Shown here in pieces: positions 27,757 through 51,222 of a stretch of 64,000 nucleotides of DNA. The translations under genes and the position numbers were made by a program. This DNA comes from an uncultured Muribaculaceae bacterium (GTDB lineage: Bacteria > Bacillota_I > Bacilli_A > RF39 > UBA660), in NCBI GenBank assembly GCA_964370755.1, contig CAYJKL010000001.1:9046-73045 (forward strand). Direction: 5' to 3'. The number at the start of each line of letters is the position of its first letter. Within the stretch, counting starts at the first letter, position 1. The notes under the pieces were generated by a model, which ran no database searches, was not told where the DNA came from, and saw only the letters and a program-made list of their open reading frames with translations.

Positions 27757-29694
27757 ATGCGTTTTTTTAAACTTAGTTTTAAACTTTTTATATTTGGCTT
27801 TATCTCTTTTGTTGTTATTATGGTAGCTCTTTATGTCTATGCCTATTTAAGCCCTCAGATTGATTTAAAAACTCCTGGTAATCTATATTTATATGATAAT
27901 AATAGTAATTTAGTTTATCAAGGTTCTAAATCTAGTCAGTGGGTAGAAATAGATGATATTAGTGACTATTTGATAAATGCCACTATTTCTGTTGAAGATA
28001 AAAATTATTATAACCATTCTGGATTTGATTATATAAGGATTGCTAGTGCTGCACTTACTAATATTCAAACAAGAAGTATTACTCAGGGTGCTTCTACTAT
28101 AACACAGCAATATGCTAAAAATATGTACTTAGATTTTAGTCAGACTTTTGAAAGAAAAATAGAAGAGGCCTTTTTAACTCTAGAACTTGAAGTTCACTAT
28201 GAAAAAGATGAAATTTTAGAAGGTTATTTAAATACTATATATTATGGACAAGGTAATTATGGTATTGAAAATGCTAGTAACTTTTACTTTAATAAAGATT
28301 CTAAAGATTTAACGCTTGAAGAAGCTATAATTTTAGCTGGTATACCTAATAGACCAAATGATTATAATCCTGTATCAAATTATGAAGCATCTGTTAATAG
28401 AGCTCTTATCGTTGCTAAAACTATGCTTGATAATGGTTATATTAGTGAAACTGAGTTTGAAGGTTTATTTGAAAATGAACTTGAAATATACGCTAAGAAT
28501 ACTGAAAATGATTTACAAATGGTTATGTATTATCAAGATGCTGTTTTAGATGAACTTTATTCACTTAAAGAAATTCCTACTTCTTTAATAGATTCTGGAG
28601 GTCTTAAAGTATATACCACACTTGATTTAGATGCACAAAAGAATTTAGAAGAAAATATTCTTGAAAATTTACCTGATGATGAAATACAAGTATCTAGTGT
28701 TGTTGCTGACCCTAATACTGGTGCAGTACTAGCTTTAACAGGTGGTGTTGATTATTCTCTTAGTACATATAATAGAGCAACTACATCTACTAGGCAAGTA
28801 GGATCTGTTATGAAATCTTTTCTTTATTATGCTGCTCTTGAAAATAATATGACTATGGCTTCTACTTTTAAAAGTGAGCATACTGTATTTACACTATCTA
28901 ACGATCAAGTTTATTCACCTAGTAATTATAATAATAAATATGCTAATAAAGATATTACTATGGCAGCAGCTCTTGCTTTTTCTGATAATATATATGCAGT
29001 TAAAACCAATCTTTTTTTAGGCATTGATAAAATGATTGATGTTGCTAAAACTACTGGCATTGAAGGCAATTTAAATGAAGTTGCTTCACTTGCACTTGGG
29101 ACTAGCGAACTTAGTTTGATAGATATTGCTACTGGTTATACTACATTTGCTTCTGGTGGATATGAAAGAGATTTATATTTTATTGAAAGAGTTGAGGACA
29201 TGAATGGTAATGTACTTTACGAAAAGGAACATGTAAATAATCTTGTTCTTAACCCTAACTATACATATATACTTAATGAAATGCTTGCTTGTACTACAAG
29301 TAATAAATTTAGTGATTATACTGTAGCAACAGGCGTTTCTATAGCAAATGAATTAACAAATAAGTATGCACTTAAAAGTGGTACTACTGATACTGATAAC
29401 TGGCATATTGGTTATAACGAAGATTTACTAGTTGCTATATGGATGGGTTATGATGATAATAAAGAGACCAATTCAACAGTGAGCCAAAAAGAAAGAAATA
29501 TTTGGGCTAGTACTATGGAAGATATTTTGGCAAATAAAAACACCAACTGGTATGATAAACCTGATAATGTAGTTGGTGTTATGCTTGATTCTGTTACTGG
29601 AGAAGCTCCTACTGATAGTGATAATAGTACAATATTTTATTTTCTAAAAGGAACTGAACCTGGAGCAAGCTCTTATGTTAGTACACCTGATTAA
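27757..29694 (+). CDS. Class A penicillin-binding protein (glycosyltransferase + transpeptidase)
   Basis: GT51 motifs SVEDKNYYNHSGFD and GASTITQQYAKN. Transpeptidase motifs GSVMKSF (SxxK), SDN, KSGTT. N-terminal TM anchor. Confidence 0.9.
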   Translation: MRFFKLSFKLFIFGFISFVVIMVALYVYAYLSPQIDLKTPGNLYLYDNNSNLVYQGSKSSQWVEIDDISDYLINATISVEDKNYYNHSGFDYIRIASAALTNIQTRSITQGASTITQQYAKNMYLDFSQTFERKIEEAFLTLELEVHYEKDEILEGYLNTIYYGQGNYGIENASNFYFNKDSKDLTLEEAIILAGIPNRPNDYNPVSNYEASVNRALIVAKTMLDNGYISETEFEGLFENELEIYAKNTENDLQMVMYYQDAVLDELYSLKEIPTSLIDSGGLKVYTTLDLDAQKNLEENILENLPDDEIQVSSVVADPNTGAVLALTGGVDYSLSTYNRATTSTRQVGSVMKSFLYYAALENNMTMASTFKSEHTVFTLSNDQVYSPSNYNNKYANKDITMAAALAFSDNIYAVKTNLFLGIDKMIDVAKTTGIEGNLNEVASLALGTSELSLIDIATGYTTFASGGYERDLYFIERVEDMNGNVLYEKEHVNNLVLNPNYTYILNEMLACTTSNKFSDYTVATGVSIANELTNKYALKSGTTDTDNWHIGYNEDLLVAIWMGYDDNKETNSTVSQKERNIWASTMEDILANKNTNWYDKPDNVVGVMLDSVTGEAPTDSDNSTIFYFLKGTEPGASSYVSTPD

Positions 29695-30650
29695 TTAGGT
29701 ATATTTATTTTAAGAACAATTGATCCATTTTCTTCTGTTTCAGTAAATGTTACATTTGGGTATTTTGAGATAAATTCTTTTATCTCATTTTTTATGTTAC
29801 TATCACTTGCTGGGCTTTGTGGCACATCAAATTCATCTAACATTTCTATTTCTTCAACTGCTGGACTTATTTCTGGAGCAGTCACACTCATGTTTGCTGA
29901 TTCATCTTCTAAAAAGTTAAAAAATTTATTTGGTACTTTTTCAGTATTATTTGGATTATTAAACATATTTTGCTCCTCTCTTTTTATTACTTCTTCTTTA
30001 GGAATTATTTTAATTGGCTCTATTTTAGGCTTTTCTTCAACGCCTTGCATTTTTATAATTTCTTCTTCTAATCTTTTTACACTTAATCTTTCATTTAATA
30101 TTTTATCAAGTAGTGTTTTTTGATCTTCTATTTTTTTTACTTTTAGAAGTGTTCTAGCATGTCTTTCTGAAATTTTTTCAGCAAGTATTGCATCTTGCAC
30201 ACTTTCATCTAAGCTAAGAAGCCTTAGTTTATTAGAAATAGCACTTTGACTAATCCCCATTTTTCTAGCAAGTTCCTCTTGATTCATTAAACCTTTATCA
30301 AGTAAAGCTTTATAAGATTTTGCTTCTTCTATTGCTGTTAAACTTTTTCTTTGAACATTTTCAACAATTGCTACTTCTGCACTTTTTGTATCTGACATTT
30401 CTGTTATTATTGCTGGTACTGAAATAAGTCCCGCTATTTTCGCAGCACGATATCTTCTTTCTCCTGCTATAATTTCATATTTATCATTTATTCTTCTTAT
30501 TATAATTGGCTGTATAATACCATGCTCTTTAATTGACTGTGCAAGTTCAGATAATGAGGCATCATCAAAAGCTAATCGTGGTTGAAAACGATTAGGTAAT
30601 ATGTCCTCTATTGGTATTTGCATTACATTATTATTATTCATGCTAGCCAT
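29691..30650 (-). CDS. noc: ParB-family protein, Noc-like (nucleoid occlusion protein) by position and recognition-helix residues
   Basis: ParB N-domain PNRFQPR and CTP-binding box IIAGERRYRAAK. The HTH GISQSAISNKLRLLSL...ISERHARTL resembles B. subtilis Noc (GKGQSTIANKLRLLKL...ITERHARAL) rather than Spo0J (GKSRPHIANHLRLLTL...LSMGHGRTL); this comparison is from memory. The C-terminus ...IVLKINIPN resembles Noc ...IQLTIRIPK. The gene lies immediately downstream of rsmG, as noc does in Bacilli. Confidence 0.75.
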   Translation of the reverse strand: MASMNNNNVMQIPIEDILPNRFQPRLAFDDASLSELAQSIKEHGIIQPIIIRRINDKYEIIAGERRYRAAKIAGLISVPAIITEMSDTKSAEVAIVENVQRKSLTAIEEAKSYKALLDKGLMNQEELARKMGISQSAISNKLRLLSLDESVQDAILAEKISERHARTLLKVKKIEDQKTLLDKILNERLSVKRLEEEIIKMQGVEEKPKIEPIKIIPKEEVIKREEQNMFNNPNNTEKVPNKFFNFLEDESANMSVTAPEISPAVEEIEMLDEFDVPQSPASDSNIKNEIKEFISKYPNVTFTETEENGSIVLKINIPN

Positions 30651-30736: not shown

Positions 30737-30756
30737 AAGTGCATACTTTTGCACTT
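30737..30756 (-). terminator. Intrinsic terminator after rsmG, separating it from noc
   Basis: Minus strand reads AAGTGCA-aaagta-TGCACTT followed by TTTTT. The hairpin overlaps the rsmG stop codon. Confidence 0.5.
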
Positions 30757-31459
30757 ACTTTAATTCTGATTTTATTATTTTATCGTATGGTCTTACGTTT
30801 TCTAAGTTTGATTCTTTAGTCTTAATAAATCTTACTATGTTTCTTTCTCCAGAATCATTTATCAGATTAAATTTTTCTTTTTTATCTACTGTTAAATTTA
30901 ATAGTTTAATTGTATTTTCGGCTTCTTTTAACTCTTCTGTAAGTGTACCTTTCATCGCAATAAAACTTCCATCTTTTTTTACAAAAGGAACACATAACTC
31001 TGTTAGTACTCTAAGGTTAGCTACTGCTCTTGCTGTTACTGCATCAAATTTATTTATGTTCTTTTTTAAGTAGTTTTCTGCTCTATCGTTTACTACGGTT
31101 ACCTTTGAACCGATACCATTTGATACATAATTTAAAAATTTAGTTTTTTTATTATTTGAATCTAAACAAGTTACTTCTAAAGATGGATAGAATATTTTAA
31201 GAACAATTCCTGGAAAACCCGCACCTGATCCTATATCTAGTAAGTTTGTAACAGTATTTAAATCAATTACTTTAGCTATTGTTAAACTATCGTAGAAGTG
31301 TTTTAAGTATACATCTTCTTTTTCAATAATTCTTGTTAAGTTTGTATGCTCATTATAATCTTTTAGAAGTTCGTAATATCTTTCTAATTTATCTAACATT
31401 TCACTAGTGTAGGTAATATTTAGTTTAGTTATTTCTTCTATAAATGTTTCTTTATTCAT
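30755..31459 (-). CDS. rsmG: 16S rRNA (guanine527-N7)-methyltransferase RsmG (GidB)
   Basis: SAM motif LLDIGSGAGFPGI. Conserved position after mnmG, with an 8-nt overlap. Confidence 0.9.
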   Translation of the reverse strand: MNKETFIEEITKLNITYTSEMLDKLERYYELLKDYNEHTNLTRIIEKEDVYLKHFYDSLTIAKVIDLNTVTNLLDIGSGAGFPGIVLKIFYPSLEVTCLDSNNKKTKFLNYVSNGIGSKVTVVNDRAENYLKKNINKFDAVTARAVANLRVLTELCVPFVKKDGSFIAMKGTLTEELKEAENTIKLLNLTVDKKEKFNLINDSGERNIVRFIKTKESNLENVRPYDKIIKSELK

Positions 31460-40699: not shown

Positions 40700-40960
40700 G
40701 TTTTTAATGTTGATAACTTTATGTGTATTTTTTTAGTAACACATTTTTAAACATAGTTATTAACATTTTACATTTCGATTTTTCTTTTAAATTCGACAAA
40801 TTTCGACTTTATTCACAAATTAACACCTATTAACATTTCTTAAAACAACACATAACTTATAAATGTTGGTTTGTTAATTGCAATTTGTTGATAAATGTTA
40901 ATAAGTATTTTTTTCTTGTAAATAAAAGCAATTTTGTGTTGATAAGTATGTGGAAAAAAT
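40700..40960. promoter_or_regulatory. oriC upstream module / dnaA promoter region: cluster of DnaA boxes (TTATCCACA-like)
   Basis: TGTTGATAA (complement of TTATCAACA) at 40708-40716, 40886-40894 and 40937-40945. TTATTCACA at 40809-40817. TGTGGAAAA (complement of TTTTCCACA) at 40949-40957. Weaker TTATTAACA-type boxes at 40757-40765 and 40896-40904. The gene-strand switch occurs here. Confidence 0.7.
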
Positions 40961-42388: not shown

Positions 42389-42499
42389 TGTTGATAACTT
42401 TTAGTAACTAACACCTGTATCTTAGGGAAATTTATAAAGTTATTAACATTATCAACATTGTTATTATAAATAATATATAAAAAGAAAGAAGGTAAAAAA
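42389..42499. promoter_or_regulatory. oriC downstream module (dnaA-dnaN spacer): DnaA boxes followed by an AT-only stretch (candidate unwinding region)
   Basis: TGTTGATAA at 42389-42397. Two abutting head-to-tail boxes, TTATTAACA (42440-42448) and TTATCAACA (42449-42457), are followed by TTGTTATTATAAATAATATATAAAAAG. Confidence 0.6.
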
Positions 42500-43618: not shown

Positions 43619-43689
43619 TAACAAAATGTGACAATTTATTTAAGATTTTTATGTTAAAGTAGCATAAAAATTTTTTTATGGGGGAATTT

Positions 43690-44133
43690 ATGCAAAATAA
43701 TATAATTGATTTTGATACTTATGCTGTTATACCAGGGGTTAATGGTTCAAAAATTGTTAATAAGTTTAAAGTTTTTTTTGACTATAGAAACGTTAGGTCT
43801 ATTGTTAATTCTAGTTGTAAGTATTATGGAAGTAGTTTGGATGGCAGAATTAGTGGATCTAAAGAGATGCTTGGTATTTCGTATAAGGTTCCTATTATTG
43901 TTAGCGAAAACTTCAATTTGATATTTTTTCCAACGTCTTCTCCTAGGAGTGATGATTGTGTCTGGATAAATTTATGTGCTATTTTAGAATATAAGAGTAA
44001 ATCTAAAAATTTGGTGTTGGTAACTTTTAAAAATGGTAAAAAAGTGGTCTTAAATATTAGTTTCGGAGTGCTTGAGAAACAAATTTTGAGAGCTTCTCGT
44101 TTGGAAAGTATTTTTTTAGCAAGAAAAAGATGA
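43690..44133 (+). CDS. comK: ComK-family protein (competence transcription factor-like)
   Basis: SCKYYGSSLDGRISGSKEMLGISYKVPIIVSENFNLIFFPTSSPRSDDCVWINL...VTFKNGKKVVLNISFGVLEKQILRASRL aligns by eye with B. subtilis ComK SCRFFGSSYAGRKAGTYEVTKISHKPPIMV...IFLFPTLSSTRPQCGWI...VTFSNGKTMELPISYNSFENQVYRTAWL (recalled from memory). Start at 43690 after GGGGGA. Confidence 0.75.
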   Translation: MQNNIIDFDTYAVIPGVNGSKIVNKFKVFFDYRNVRSIVNSSCKYYGSSLDGRISGSKEMLGISYKVPIIVSENFNLIFFPTSSPRSDDCVWINLCAILEYKSKSKNLVLVTFKNGKKVVLNISFGVLEKQILRASRLESIFLARKR

Positions 44134-47253: not shown

Positions 47254-47265
47254 GAGGTGCTTATA

Positions 47266-49743
47266 ATGGATAAATTAGAACAACAAAATATAGTTAATGA
47301 AATGGAAAAATCGTTTCTTGAATATTCAATGAGTGTTATTATTTCAAGAGCACTTCCAGACTTAAGAGATGGTTTAAAACCAGTTCATAGAAGAATACTT
47401 TATGCGATGCATGAAGATGGTTTAACACCAGATAAAATGTTTAAAAAAAGTGCAACTACTGTAGGTAATGTACTTGGTAGATATCATCCACATGGTGATT
47501 CATCAGTATATGACTCAATGGTTAGAATGGCACAAGATTTTAGTTATAGATATCCTTTAGTTGAAGGACATGGTAACTTTGGTTCAATAGATGGTGATGG
47601 AGCTGCGGCATATCGTTATACAGAGGCAAGATTACAAAAATTATCTTTAGAACTTCTTAGAGATATTAATAAGGATACTGTTGATTTTGAAGCAAACTTT
47701 GATAATTCTAGAAAAGAACCTAAAGTATTACCTTCTAGATATCCAAATATACTAGTAAATGGTACTATGGGTATTGCAGTTGGTATGGCTACTAACATTC
47801 CTCCACATAATTTAGGAGAAGTAATTGATGGTTGTGTAGCTTTTATTGATAATAATGAAATAACTATTCCAGAACTTATGGAATACGTAAAAGGTCCTGA
47901 TTTTCCAACATCTGCTTCAATACTTGGTAATTCTGGTATAAGAAAAGCTTATGAAACTGGAAGAGGTTCAATTACTATTAGAGGTAAAGCTGAAATTATT
48001 GAGAAAAATAATAAATCTCAAATAATTATTACTGAACTTCCTTATCAAGTTAATAAGAAAAATTTCCAAGAAAAGATTGGACAACTTGTAAGAGATAAAA
48101 TAATTGATGGAATAGCAGATTTAAATGATGAATCTACGCTTAAAAATGGTATTAAAGTAGTTGTAACTCTTAAAAGAGATGCAAATGCTAATGTAGTACT
48201 TAATAACCTTTATAAACATACACAATTACAAACATCTTATGGTATTAATTTACTTATGTTAGATGAAGGTGAACCAAAAACACTAAATTTAAAAGAAATT
48301 ATAGAAAAATATACAAATTATCAGAAAGTTGTTATTGTTAGAAGAACTAAATTTGAACTAGCTAAGGCTGAGCGTCGTGTTCACATCTTAGAAGGTTTAA
48401 AAATAGCTCTTGATAATATAGATGAAGTTATTAAACTTATTAGGGCTGCTGCTACAGATGAAGAAGCTAAAAATGGATTAATGACTAAGTTTGGATTATC
48501 TGAAATACAAGCTGAAGCAATACTTGAAATGAAACTTAGAAGACTTACGGGTCTTGAAAAATCTAAGATTGAAGATGAACTTGCTGAGCTTATGAAGGAA
48601 ATAGATCGTTTAAGAGGTATTCTTGCTGATGAAGCTAAAGTTTTAGCTATTATTAAAGAAGAATTACTAGAAATTAAACATAAATATAATGATGAAAGAA
48701 GAACTAATATAGATATGACGGCTATAGAATTCATTGAAGATGAGTCGCTTATACCTGAAGAAAATATAATTGTAATGCTTACAAAAGCTGGTTATATTAA
48801 ACGTACACTTCCTGGAGAGTTTAAAACTCAAAACAGAGGTGGTGTTGGTATTAAAGGTATGACTACTAATGAAGAAGATATAGTTGAGCAACTTATTAAC
48901 TTATCAACACATGATTATATATTATTCTTTACAAATAAAGGAAAAGTATATAGACTTAAGGGATATGAAATACCAGAATTTGGTAGAACTGCTAAAGGAA
49001 TTCCTATTGTTAATTTACTACAACTTGAAAATGATGAAAAAATTAGTTCTGTTATACAAATTAAGAATGATGAAGCTAAAAAGTATTTATTATTTTCTAC
49101 TAAAACAGGTGTAGTTAAAAAGACTTTAATAGAAGAATTTAGTAATATTAGAACTACTGGTAAGATATCTATTAATTTAAGAGAAAATGATGAGCTTATT
49201 GCTGTTAGAAAAACTTCTGGCGAAGATATGATTCTTTTAGGGTCTAATGCAGGTCGTATGGTTAAATTCCTAGAAAGTGAACTAAGACCTATGGGAAGAA
49301 CTGCATCAGGCGTTAGAGGTATTAATTTAGGCGAAGCTGAATGTGTTTGTGCTGAAGTTGTGTCTGAAGATGATCTTATCTTGTTATTAACAGAAAAAGG
49401 ATATGGTAAGAAGACATTTGTAAGTGAGTTTAGACAAACTAAACGTGGTTCTAAAGGTGTTAAAGCACTTAATATTACTGATAAAAATGGTGCATTAATA
49501 TCTGTTAAAGTATTAAATGATGAAAATGAATTAGTACTTATGACAAATGTTGGTTTGACAATTAGAATGCCTCTTGAACAGATTTCTACATTAGGTAGAG
49601 TTACTCAAGGGTTAAGATTAATTAATTTAAAAGATAATCAACAAGTATCAAGTGCTGTATTACTAAAAATTGAACAAGAAGAAATAGAAACTGATTCAGA
49701 AACAAATGAATCAGAAGAAAATGAAGAAATTAGCGAAAGCTAG
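47266..49743 (+). CDS. gyrA: DNA gyrase subunit A
   Basis: [25 protein letters not shown] region [17 protein letters not shown], catalytic [12 protein letters not shown]-terminal beta-pinwheel repeats and an acidic tail. Start at 47266 after AGGAGGTG. Confidence 0.97.
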
Positions 49744-49793: not shown

Positions 49794-50017
49794 TTATGTA
49801 AACTGAATATTTCCCGGGAAATAAAATTGTGAATAAATATAACGTTATTAACATAAAAATATTTCCCGGGAAATATTTTTATATGTTATGTAACCCAAAA
49901 TATTTCCCAAATTATAAAATTTTGTATAAATTTGTATGTTATGTTAACAAATTATTTCCCGGGAAATAATTTCGTTGCAACCAATTATTATGTAAACTAA
50001 TTATTTTCCAAAAATAA
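49794..50017. repeat. Tandem array of five ~41-53 bp units, each TTATGTAAAC-like + 4-5 nt + Noc-binding-site (NBS) palindrome TATTTCCCGGGAAATA
   Basis: Perfect 16-mers at 49808-49823, 49860-49875 and 49953-49968. A half-site-only copy TATTTCCCaaattata lies at 49901-49916, and a decayed copy TATTTTCCAAAAATAA at 50002-50017. TTATGTAAAC-type motifs are at 49794, 49886 (TTATGTAACC), 49939 (TTATGTTAAC), 49988 and 50081, with TTATTAACAT at 49845. The core equals the B. subtilis NBS consensus ATTTCCCGGGAAAT. Confidence 0.75.
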
Positions 50018-50328
50018 GTTAAGTTCTCTTATCAATATTTAATGATATATACCTGGCAAAATTTGTGTTTTTAAATAATATTATGTAAACCAAATTCTTA
50101 AGCTAGCTAATGCTCTTTTGTTTATTCTTATTTTTTTTAAAGTAGCTTAATATATTTCATTATTTATTTATAATTTGAATGATAGATATGTATTATAATT
50201 TCAATTATTCGTTTTTAAATTTATTATATATTTCTATTATAATATATTTTTTAAATTATTAGTTATATATATTAACAGATTGATCTTTCGTATTTATTAT
50301 AGTATATATCCTTAATTTTTACGAACAA

Positions 50329-51023
50329 TGTTCCACGTGGAACATTGTTTTTTTGTTGTATGTGTTATATATTGATATATTTTATGTATATTGATTCAAA
50401 TTTTCTTGGCTAGTAGTTATATAATTCATTAAAATATATTCAATGTTCCACGTGGAACATTGAGTGTTGATAACTTATACATATATTATTTGAGTTAAAT
50501 ATATATTTAATGTTGTTTTATTTTATTTATTTGTTAATAAAATCACCATTTTTGTAACTTTATATACTTTTGATGCGTTTGATGTTCCACGTGGAACATC
50601 ATGTTTATAATGCATTTTTTTAGTCTGTTATTTTAATTATAATATTTCAGTGTTAATAAATCCTATCTATTTTTTTTATTACGATTACAATGTTCCACGT
50701 GGAACATTGGTTATTTTTGTTGGTAACTTTCTCAATATAATTGAGTGTTATTATATTTTTTTGCCTAATTTACGCGGAAAATTCAATGTTCCACGTGGAA
50801 CATCAGCTTGTTGATAACTTATTTTCATGTTCTTTTTTTGATATATTAAATTAATGTTAATAAGTTTCCTATAAAATTTAAATAGTATTTTTTTCTTTAT
50901 ATGTTCCACGTGGAACATTAAGTGTTGATAAGTTTTATAACGAGAATGTTTTATTATAGATTATTTTGTGTTAATAATATAGTTAAGTATTTAGTATTTC
51001 AAAACAATGTTCCACGTGGAACA
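50329..51023. repeat. Array of seven identical, perfectly symmetric parS (ParB/Spo0J-binding centromere) sites
   Basis: TGTTCCACGTGGAACA at 50329-50344, 50444-50459, 50583-50598, 50691-50706, 50787-50802, 50902-50917 and 51008-51023. All copies share the 18-bp palindrome ATGTTCCACGTGGAACAT, and the first extends to 26 bp. This matches the parS consensus TGTTNCACGTGAAACA. The spacers are AT-rich and only loosely related to one another. Confidence 0.8.
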
Positions 51024-51097
51024 TTGTTAATAATTATCGAATTACTGCACTTTATGTGTATATTTTCTTTATTTTATGGCGATTTTATGTTTTTTTC

Positions 51098-51126
51098 TTG
51101 TTTTTCAATGTTAATTATGATATAAT
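51098..51126 (+). promoter_or_regulatory. Putative extended -10 sigma-A promoter for the SRP RNA gene (TTGTTT - 17 nt - TGaTATAAT)
   Basis: Read directly from the sequence. The -10 TATAAT at 51121-51126 is preceded by TG at 51118-51119. The predicted start is near G51133. Confidence 0.5.
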
Positions 51127-51132
51127 TTATAC

Positions 51133-51210
51133 GTGCAACAAATATATTGTAATCTGGTCAGGATCGGAAGATAGCAGCCACGTCAATCCCTATTTGTGTG
51201 CACTTTTTTT
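51133..51210 (+). ncRNA. ffs: Small (4.5S-type) signal recognition particle RNA
   Basis: CTGGTCAGGATCGGAAGATAGCAGCCACG matches the universally conserved SRP RNA domain IV (E. coli CCAGGUCAGGUCCGGAAGGAAGCAGCCAAGG) including the GGAA tetraloop. The closing stem is GTGCAACAAATA...TATTTGTGTGCAC, followed by T7. It sits next to tadA/dnaX, as scr does in B. subtilis. Confidence 0.65.
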
Positions 51211-51222
51211 ATAGGAGAATTT

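Follow-up and report, generated by a model that had tools for sequence, protein, structure and literature searches.

Clustered Noc-binding sites beside a parS array in the replication-origin region of uncultured gut Bacilli, with a candidate Noc-type reader

Noc and its binding site (NBS) have been studied only in Bacillus subtilis and Staphylococcus aureus, where the protein acts as a membrane tether for DNA and its sites are scattered. The stretch of DNA analysed here (the window, 64 kb in length) contains several copies of this site side by side, directly downstream of gyrA and near the replication origin, and thereby raises the question of what a Noc-binding sequence could serve for when it is concentrated at a single place, and which protein would read it there.

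NBS and parS sites in the gyrA–ffs spacer

The window covers the replication-origin region of a genome with 26.8% G+C, whose relatives in the databases, all metagenome-assembled genomes of human, rabbit, rumen and chicken gut, bear the labels Bacilli, Mollicutes, Tenericutes or Erysipelotrichaceae. Coding strands switch between rpmH/rnpA (minus strand, up to 40636) and dnaA (from 41040, plus strand), and the cumulative GC skew reaches its minimum at the same switch. To the right of it follow dnaA, dnaN, a ComK-family gene, recF, gyrB, gyrA, a 1.4-kb non-coding spacer, ffs, tadA and dnaX. The spacer is bounded on the left by gyrA (47257..49743, plus strand) and on the right by the SRP RNA gene ffs (51125..51219, plus strand), which tadA and dnaX follow; SRP RNA was the sole RNA family that Rfam matched on the spacer.

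Three perfect copies of the 16-bp palindrome TATTTCCCGGGAAATA were found by sequence match at 49808..49823, 49860..49875 and 49953..49968 (palindromic, hence given with no strand), with the 14-bp core ATTTCCCGGGAAAT perfect at 49809, 49861 and 49954. Two decayed copies accompany them, namely TATTTCCCAAATTATA at 49901..49916 (no strand, repeat family D2), which keeps its left half-site intact, and TATTTTCCAAAAATAA at 50002..50017 (no strand, repeat family D5). A preliminary description of this DNA had listed these five copies and taken their core for the binding site of Noc; its positions and sequences are reproduced here, and the 16-mer is letter for letter the NBS of the Noc biochemistry papers. 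Allowing up to two mismatches, the core has four matches in the 64-kb window versus 0.06 expected, and the hexamer CCCGGG does not occur in the 64 kb outside the cluster. Within these 64 kb, the perfect copies show no dispersed distribution and all fall inside one 160-bp cluster; together with the copies of a second motif described below, the whole assembly takes up less than 300 bp. A repeat search resolved it into a diverged direct repeat with a 33-nt unit in four copies (spacing 52/41/52 bp) and a higher-order repeat of 43 nt, the copies of which lie 145 bp apart and join units 1 and 4. The divergence of the units was too great for Tandem Repeats Finder, which did not report the array.

Seven perfect copies of the parS palindrome, TGTTCCACGTGGAACA, share this spacer, lying between 50329 and 51023 (no strand; starts at 50329, 50444, 50583, 50691, 50787, 50902 and 51008). 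They are spaced by 96–139 bp, and 0.09 matches would be expected even at three mismatches allowed. The site measures 16 bp (TGTTNCACGTGNAACA), or 18 bp with its flanks (ATGTTCCACGTGGAACAT), and it lies about 9–10 kb from the GC-skew minimum and dnaA, near oriC as is typical of a parS centromere. A seven-copy array is unusually dense for a chromosome. It did not appear in the preliminary description, which located the NBS copies correctly and treated as a whole what is only half of a larger unit, with the parS array alongside and, in relatives, interleaved with NBS. Both the NBS cluster and the parS array are situated about 9 kb to the right of oriC.

A third kind of word is present in this spacer. 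TGTTRATAA (reverse complement TTATYAACA) was found 46 times in the window versus 6.3 expected, a 7-fold excess, and it forms clusters on both sides of dnaA (40708-40945 and 42389-42457); this enrichment and clustering mark it as the probable local DnaA box. Eight copies, all on the plus strand, are interspersed in the parS array (50465-51033). Several of them sit a few nucleotides after a parS, and in the relative L002 the box abuts parS directly. The gyrA–ffs spacer is thus a dense block of chromosome-organising sites, not a lone NBS cluster. As a separate observation, the first parS with its flanks (50323-50360) folds into a 12-bp stem with a T-run behind it, a structure that scores as an intrinsic terminator, and it could double as the terminator of gyrA read-through.

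Conservation of the arrays and of a second motif

The preliminary description had proposed comparing the array across related genomes, and it proved to be kept both in loci fetched through GyrA homologues and in a scan of species genomes. Among the GyrA-fetched loci, two NBS are accompanied by six parS in L002 (89% GyrA identity to the window), by four in L003 (86%) and by five in L112 (79%), and the order gyrA, NBS, parS, ffs, tadA is preserved in all three; L115 (71%) has two to three NBS on the tadA side and seven parS. In L004 (82%, eight copies) and L005 (83%, four copies) the parS array stands alone, NBS being absent within 22 kb; the NBS cluster can accordingly be dispensed with at exactly this spot. 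Overall, the relatives carry 4–10 parS copies at this locus.

Scanning one genome per species (n = 185,579) for two NBS cores 32–62 nt apart returned 74 stretches in 68 genomes, nearly all from uncultured gut Bacilli and none from Bacillus or Staphylococcus. The majority of the non-redundant loci (57 of 73) lie in the gyrA-tadA-dnaX-recR segment; of the remainder, three are next to dnaA, two next to rsmG and one between recF and gyrB, and for ten the 8 kb that were fetched include no origin marker gene. The sole cultured match was Lactiplantibacillus plajomi (L078, 3184-3255), where the NBS pair is placed between transporter and glycosidase genes at a locus without an origin-region marker gene. 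Cluster size across the 73 loci ranges from two to nine NBS; many arrays reach contig ends, and these copy numbers are lower bounds, as such repeats break short-read assemblies. Contigs of related assemblies often end at or inside the NBS/parS arrays, as in L001 (which ends at the gyrA stop), L003, L114 and many of the scan loci.

Many species contain a true tandem repeat of NBS plus parS with a 62–76-bp period and up to nine units, in which both sites are perfect while the spacers share nothing between species. In 20 of the 73 loci, at least half of the NBS in the cluster are accompanied by a parS-like site no more than 60 bp away; arrays consisting of NBS only also exist (L064). The dnaX reading frame itself harbours NBS pairs or triples, at spacings that are multiples of three, in at least ten species (L024, 5325-5436; L050, 5902-6070; L052, L063, L016, L049, L036, L067, L071 and L026); the window's own dnaX contains no NBS. 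These embedded sites encode (I/N)ISREI in some species and NYFPGNN in others, which are two frames of the same 16-mer, so it is the DNA and not the peptide that is conserved. Over all loci, the spacings between neighbouring NBS peak at 51–54, 62–64 and 74–76 bp with troughs between, suggestive of approximately integral helical turns at about 11 bp per step, for loci that are not phylogenetically independent and a search pattern that bounded the range. The perfection of the tandem sites, the two dnaX frames and the phased spacings argue for selection acting on the NBS DNA word itself. No NBS pairs were detected on the phage contigs scanned.

The preliminary description had further regarded the repeat unit as a composite of NBS and a second motif. 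In the window, this motif occurs on the plus strand as TTATGTAAAC at 49794..49803, 4 nt before NBS 1; as the variant TTATGTAACC at 49886..49895, 5 nt before the decayed NBS at 49901; as TTATGTTAAC at 49939..49948, 4 nt before NBS 3, the form kept in relatives as ATTATGTTAAC-YAAW-NBS; again as TTATGTAAAC at 49988..49997, 4 nt before the decayed NBS at 50002; and as an orphan copy at 50081..50090 with no NBS after it. The consensus TTATGTWAMC is found five times in the window versus 1.38 expected, all on the plus strand and all within 49794-50090, and in four of these five cases it starts 14–15 bp ahead of the start of an NBS or a remnant of one. The motif is asymmetric and stands at a fixed 4-nt distance from NBS; an inverted partner at a suitable distance was not found by eye. 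Compared by eye with the DnaA-box variant TGTTRATAA, with a parS half-site and with a BirA-type half-site, it gave no match without indels.

Past its first NBS, L002 contains the same composite in inverse orientation (TATTATGTTAAC-TAAT-NBS), and L003 has TATGTTAC-AAAA-NBS. A metagenome scan with TATGTWAAC-N3-6-NBS yielded 30 contigs, all of which show the order gyrA, four to ten parS, one or two NBS, tadA, dnaX as far as the contig extends. The conserved stretch in these contigs outreaches the search pattern, reading (A)TATTATGTTAAC-YAAW-NBS, and the motif is always tadA-proximal, with the remaining flanks unrelated. Among relatives picked by GyrA similarity alone, the motif is not beside NBS in L112, L113 and L115, and the 454 NBS flanks from the species-genome scan show no general association with TTATGTAAAC-like words, nearly all of these arrays being without the motif. 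The second motif is therefore real but patchy, with ATTATGTTAAC-N4-NBS kept in some lineages and missing in others: the composite unit stands for the window, L002, L003 and the 30 metagenome contigs, and it fails for L112, L115 and most arrays of the species scan, so that the motif is not a general part of the unit. Speculatively, a second factor, or an extra contact by the C-terminal part of the paralogue described below, might possibly be accommodated at it.

The Noc-type ParB paralogue and the canonical ParB

The candidate reader of the NBS copies is encoded at 29691..30650 (minus strand, 319 amino acids), 19 kb from the cluster, by the sole ParB-family gene in the 64 kb. It is adjacent to rsmG (30755-31459), which lies directly upstream, and this agrees with the position of noc in Firmicutes, beside rsmG (gidB) in the origin gene cluster. 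The rsmG-adjacent layout recurs in P0073, and in L027 a Noc-type gene is found near rsmG. The Pfam domains ParB_N and HTH_ParB are both present, and among the closest solved relatives Noc scores higher (191.8 bits) than B. subtilis Spo0J (169.3 bits).

According to published work, four residues turn ParB (R-T-A-G) into Noc (Q-K-K-R), and NBS is read by Q173 at adenine 1 and by R201 at cytosine 6, given one lysine at 179 or 184. The window protein has Q-K-S-R at these positions, with Ser and not Lys at 184, and the 120 closest homologues all have Q-K-[T/S/N]-R, in line with the Noc specificity set (Q173, K179 and/or K184, R201). Since Q173 and R201 are combined with one lysine (179), the protein should by this residue rule prefer NBS. 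CTP binding in Noc requires the GERR arginine R89 and the ENxQR asparagine N121; the motifs GERRxRA and ENxQR are intact in the window protein, and their forms GERRYRA and ENVQR are invariant in 42 homologues.

The N-terminus differs from that of Noc. The Noc literature describes an amphipathic helix alpha1, together with alpha2 and a loop, as specific to the family and required for membrane tethering. In the window protein neither alpha1 nor alpha2 and the loop could be found: only about eight residues of the reading frame precede the first ParB N-domain strand, a stop codon bounds any extension, the homologues are equally short, and no N-terminal helix is seen in an AlphaFold2 model. The NCBIfam model TIGR04285 (nucleoid_noc) gives 269.8 bits versus a cut-off of 315. 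With no N-terminal helix and a score below the Noc cut-off, the product is, judged by its sequence, named a Noc-type ParB paralogue rather than Noc. The term "Noc-like protein" used in the preliminary description therefore fits as regards Q173, K179 and R201, but not as regards the amphipathic helix and the family score.

The C-terminal part of about 110 residues consists of a variable linker and a small helix-plus-hairpin domain. The linker (residues about 238-272) contains two near-invariant short motifs, PNKFFNFLED..NM and EEIEMLD, the former of which is loosely similar in its hydrophobic pattern to Noc's N-terminal membrane peptide. AlphaFold2 models the ParB core and the C-terminal domain confidently and the linker with low confidence, so that the model speaks neither for nor against an amphipathic helix at NKFFNFLED.

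Neither ParA nor a second, canonical ParB is encoded in the 64-kb window. In the more distant relative L027, the order is rsmG ... noc-type, soj, spo0J, and the noc-type protein there is Q-K-S-R and likewise lacks the N-terminal helix. Homologues of the L027 Spo0J are numerous; the few named ones are labelled Bacilli or Tenericutes (uncultured, metagenome), and the 120 listed share 77–100% identity with the query over about 200 residues. They contain the N-terminal ParA-binding motif RRKALGRGLEELF, R173 and a small residue at 201, the last two of which mark them as parS-type. None of these homologues could be linked to the genome of the window, in which a canonical ParB of this type is nevertheless likely to be encoded elsewhere.

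This second protein opens another way to account for the NBS copies, in which they would be extra centromere sites for the clade's canonical ParB, perhaps with relaxed specificity, and the Noc-type paralogue would be irrelevant to them. The canonical ParB of the clade (R-M-S-S) has Ser at 201, a position at which most dual-specificity variants of a deep mutational scan had T or S, S being tolerated in parS binders; the interleaving of NBS and parS in many arrays would suit such a protein as well. However, R173 was invariant in the parS-specific variants whereas the A of NBS is read by Q173, and a dedicated Q-K-x-R paralogue is present in every relative examined, pointing to a cognate reader for NBS. 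Arrays with NBS only, such as L064, also argue against it. We consider this explanation improbable, though it is the best placed of the alternatives to loading of the Noc-type paralogue at NBS.

A candidate bipartite loading region near oriC

Observed directly are the sites, how they are conserved and placed across species and, for the protein, its specificity residues and CTP motifs; binding, spreading and every downstream function are what we infer from them. On this basis, it is reasonable to suggest, with some confidence, that a Noc-type CTP clamp loads at the NBS cluster, the copies of which would act as a multi-copy nucleation site, and that the cluster and the seven-copy parS array jointly form a bipartite loading region, specific to the clade and located about 9 kb to the right of oriC. 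Dimers of the Noc-type paralogue would read each 16-bp palindrome by way of Q173 and R201, K179 serving as the permissive lysine. On binding CTP they would close to form sliding clamps, which would then spread into the kilobases on either side. Adjacent sites could raise the loading rate and yield a dominant complex on the origin region, which would overlap the ParB complex loaded at the neighbouring parS; from an array 9 kb from oriC, the paralogue's spreading zone would cover both the origin and the ParB complex. S. aureus Noc occupies 8–10 kb around each NBS and restrains initiation, and in B. subtilis Spo0J and Noc jointly keep Z rings from forming too early at mid-cell when replication is blocked at an early stage. 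The region could thus serve to mark or organise the newly replicated origin and couple origin position to division-site choice and/or replication initiation, with division inhibition over unsegregated origins, origin anchoring, initiation control and interplay with SMC loading as candidate outputs. The output may differ from classical nucleoid occlusion, since the protein has no N-terminal membrane helix of the Noc kind.

The palindromes could alternatively be operators, through which a ParB-family repressor would control ffs-tadA-dnaX transcription or gyrA read-through, as with KorB or with silencing by spreading ParB. The array does lie in a spacer that must hold the promoters of ffs, tadA and dnaX, and some parS palindromes with their T-runs score as terminator-like. 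However, promoter-like sites in the spacer are not enriched (17 found versus 16.6 expected), and the array is not fixed in place, being found downstream of gyrA, between tadA and dnaX, within dnaX or near dnaA, which does not fit a single operator-promoter geometry; operators appear to us slightly less probable still than extra ParB centromere sites. That the array is a neutral or selfish minisatellite-like repeat, functionless and resembling NBS by chance, might be suggested by the partly decayed window copies at 49901 and 50002, by copy numbers that vary among species and by contigs that often break at the array, but the cross-species data make this very unlikely, given that the 16-mer is perfect despite full divergence of the spacers between species, that the chromosomal neighbourhood is the same in 57 of 73 loci and that NBS is kept in two dnaX reading frames.

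Read as a loading region for a Noc-type clamp, the locus can be compared with known systems. With Noc–NBS of B. subtilis and S. aureus it shares the identical 16-bp palindrome, the origin-proximal sites and a putative reader that is a ParB paralogue beside rsmG with Q173, K179, R201 and intact CTP motifs. Unlike there, where NBS are dispersed as about 70 (B. subtilis) or 41 (S. aureus) single loci, the sites here form tandem arrays of two to nine at one conserved locus, adjoining or interleaved with parS, and the protein, devoid of the N-terminal amphipathic helix, of alpha2 and of the loop, has a long C-terminal linker with NKFFNFLED and EEIEMLD.

The clustered-parS centromeres of Caulobacter, Corynebacterium and Streptomyces likewise load a CTP-dependent clamp at several 16-bp palindromes near oriC, and the seven parS of the window fit them exactly. 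The known clusters of this kind have one site type and one ParB, usually over several to tens of kilobases, whereas here two site types for two paralogues are brought together in one 1.4-kb spacer, or in one 62–76-bp repeat unit. A likeness can also be drawn to RacA–ram of sporulating B. subtilis, in which the sites of a dedicated DNA-binding protein gather around the origin so that the region can be handled as a unit; RacA is outside the ParB family and its sites are a GC-rich inverted repeat, in contrast to the candidate ParB-family reader here. The composite centromere parS of P1, with its box A and box B motifs, resembles ATTATGTTAAC-N4-NBS in having an asymmetric extra motif at a fixed distance from a palindrome, but here neither a second DNA-binding domain nor a partner was found, the motif is missing in many relatives and NBS pairs are absent from the phage contigs.

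A full-text literature search, of incomplete coverage, returned the 16-mer only in Noc and ParB biochemistry papers and gave no description of natural NBS arrays, NBS-parS composite repeats or a helix-less Noc subfamily. The statement of the preliminary description that a tandem NBS cluster had not been reported is upheld to that extent, as the literature gives only dispersed NBS for B. subtilis and S. aureus. Familiar in this system are NBS, parS and the ParB-family CTPases; new are the way they are arranged, how tightly their position is conserved, the sites embedded in coding sequence and the changed architecture of the protein.

A more far-reaching scenario, which we put forward tentatively and regard as doubtful, is that Noc has been rewired in a large clade of uncultured AT-rich gut Bacilli. 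The helix-less paralogue would load onto NBS arrays interleaved with parS, the two forming a bipartite origin-proximal centromere selected strongly enough to be written into dnaX in two frames; NKFFNFLED might be a membrane- or partner-binding peptide that has changed its place in the protein and serves to position origins or to block division over them, and the ATTATGTTAAC motif might recruit a further factor in some lineages.

In contrast to the scattered sites and membrane-tethering protein of the two studied species, NBS are here concentrated at one origin-proximal locus, paired with a ParB centromere and provided with a candidate reader that has no membrane helix, which amounts to a natural experiment in loading a Noc-type CTP clamp at a single place. 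The system is relevant to the sharing of one stretch of DNA, or the competition for it, between two paralogous clamps, and to how strongly a coding sequence, such as dnaX, can be constrained by chromosome-organising sites. For gut bacteria that are abundant yet uncultured, it leads to a prediction that is concrete and testable, and orthogonal two-colour ParB/Noc arrays for DNA labelling could be modelled on its natural designs.

Two further observations concern the gene content of the region and its relatives. A ComK-family protein (Pfam PF06338, E = 1.3e-36) is encoded at 43678-44133 between dnaN and recF, and the gene is kept at this spot in all GyrA-fetched relatives whose locus covers the interval. 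Homologues of SpoIIR and BofA are encoded by relatives (L080/L081, 20521-21024; L004, 17802-17990; L005; L113; L115), indicating that at least part of this small-genome clade retains sporulation genes, despite some of its members being labelled Mollicutes or Tenericutes.
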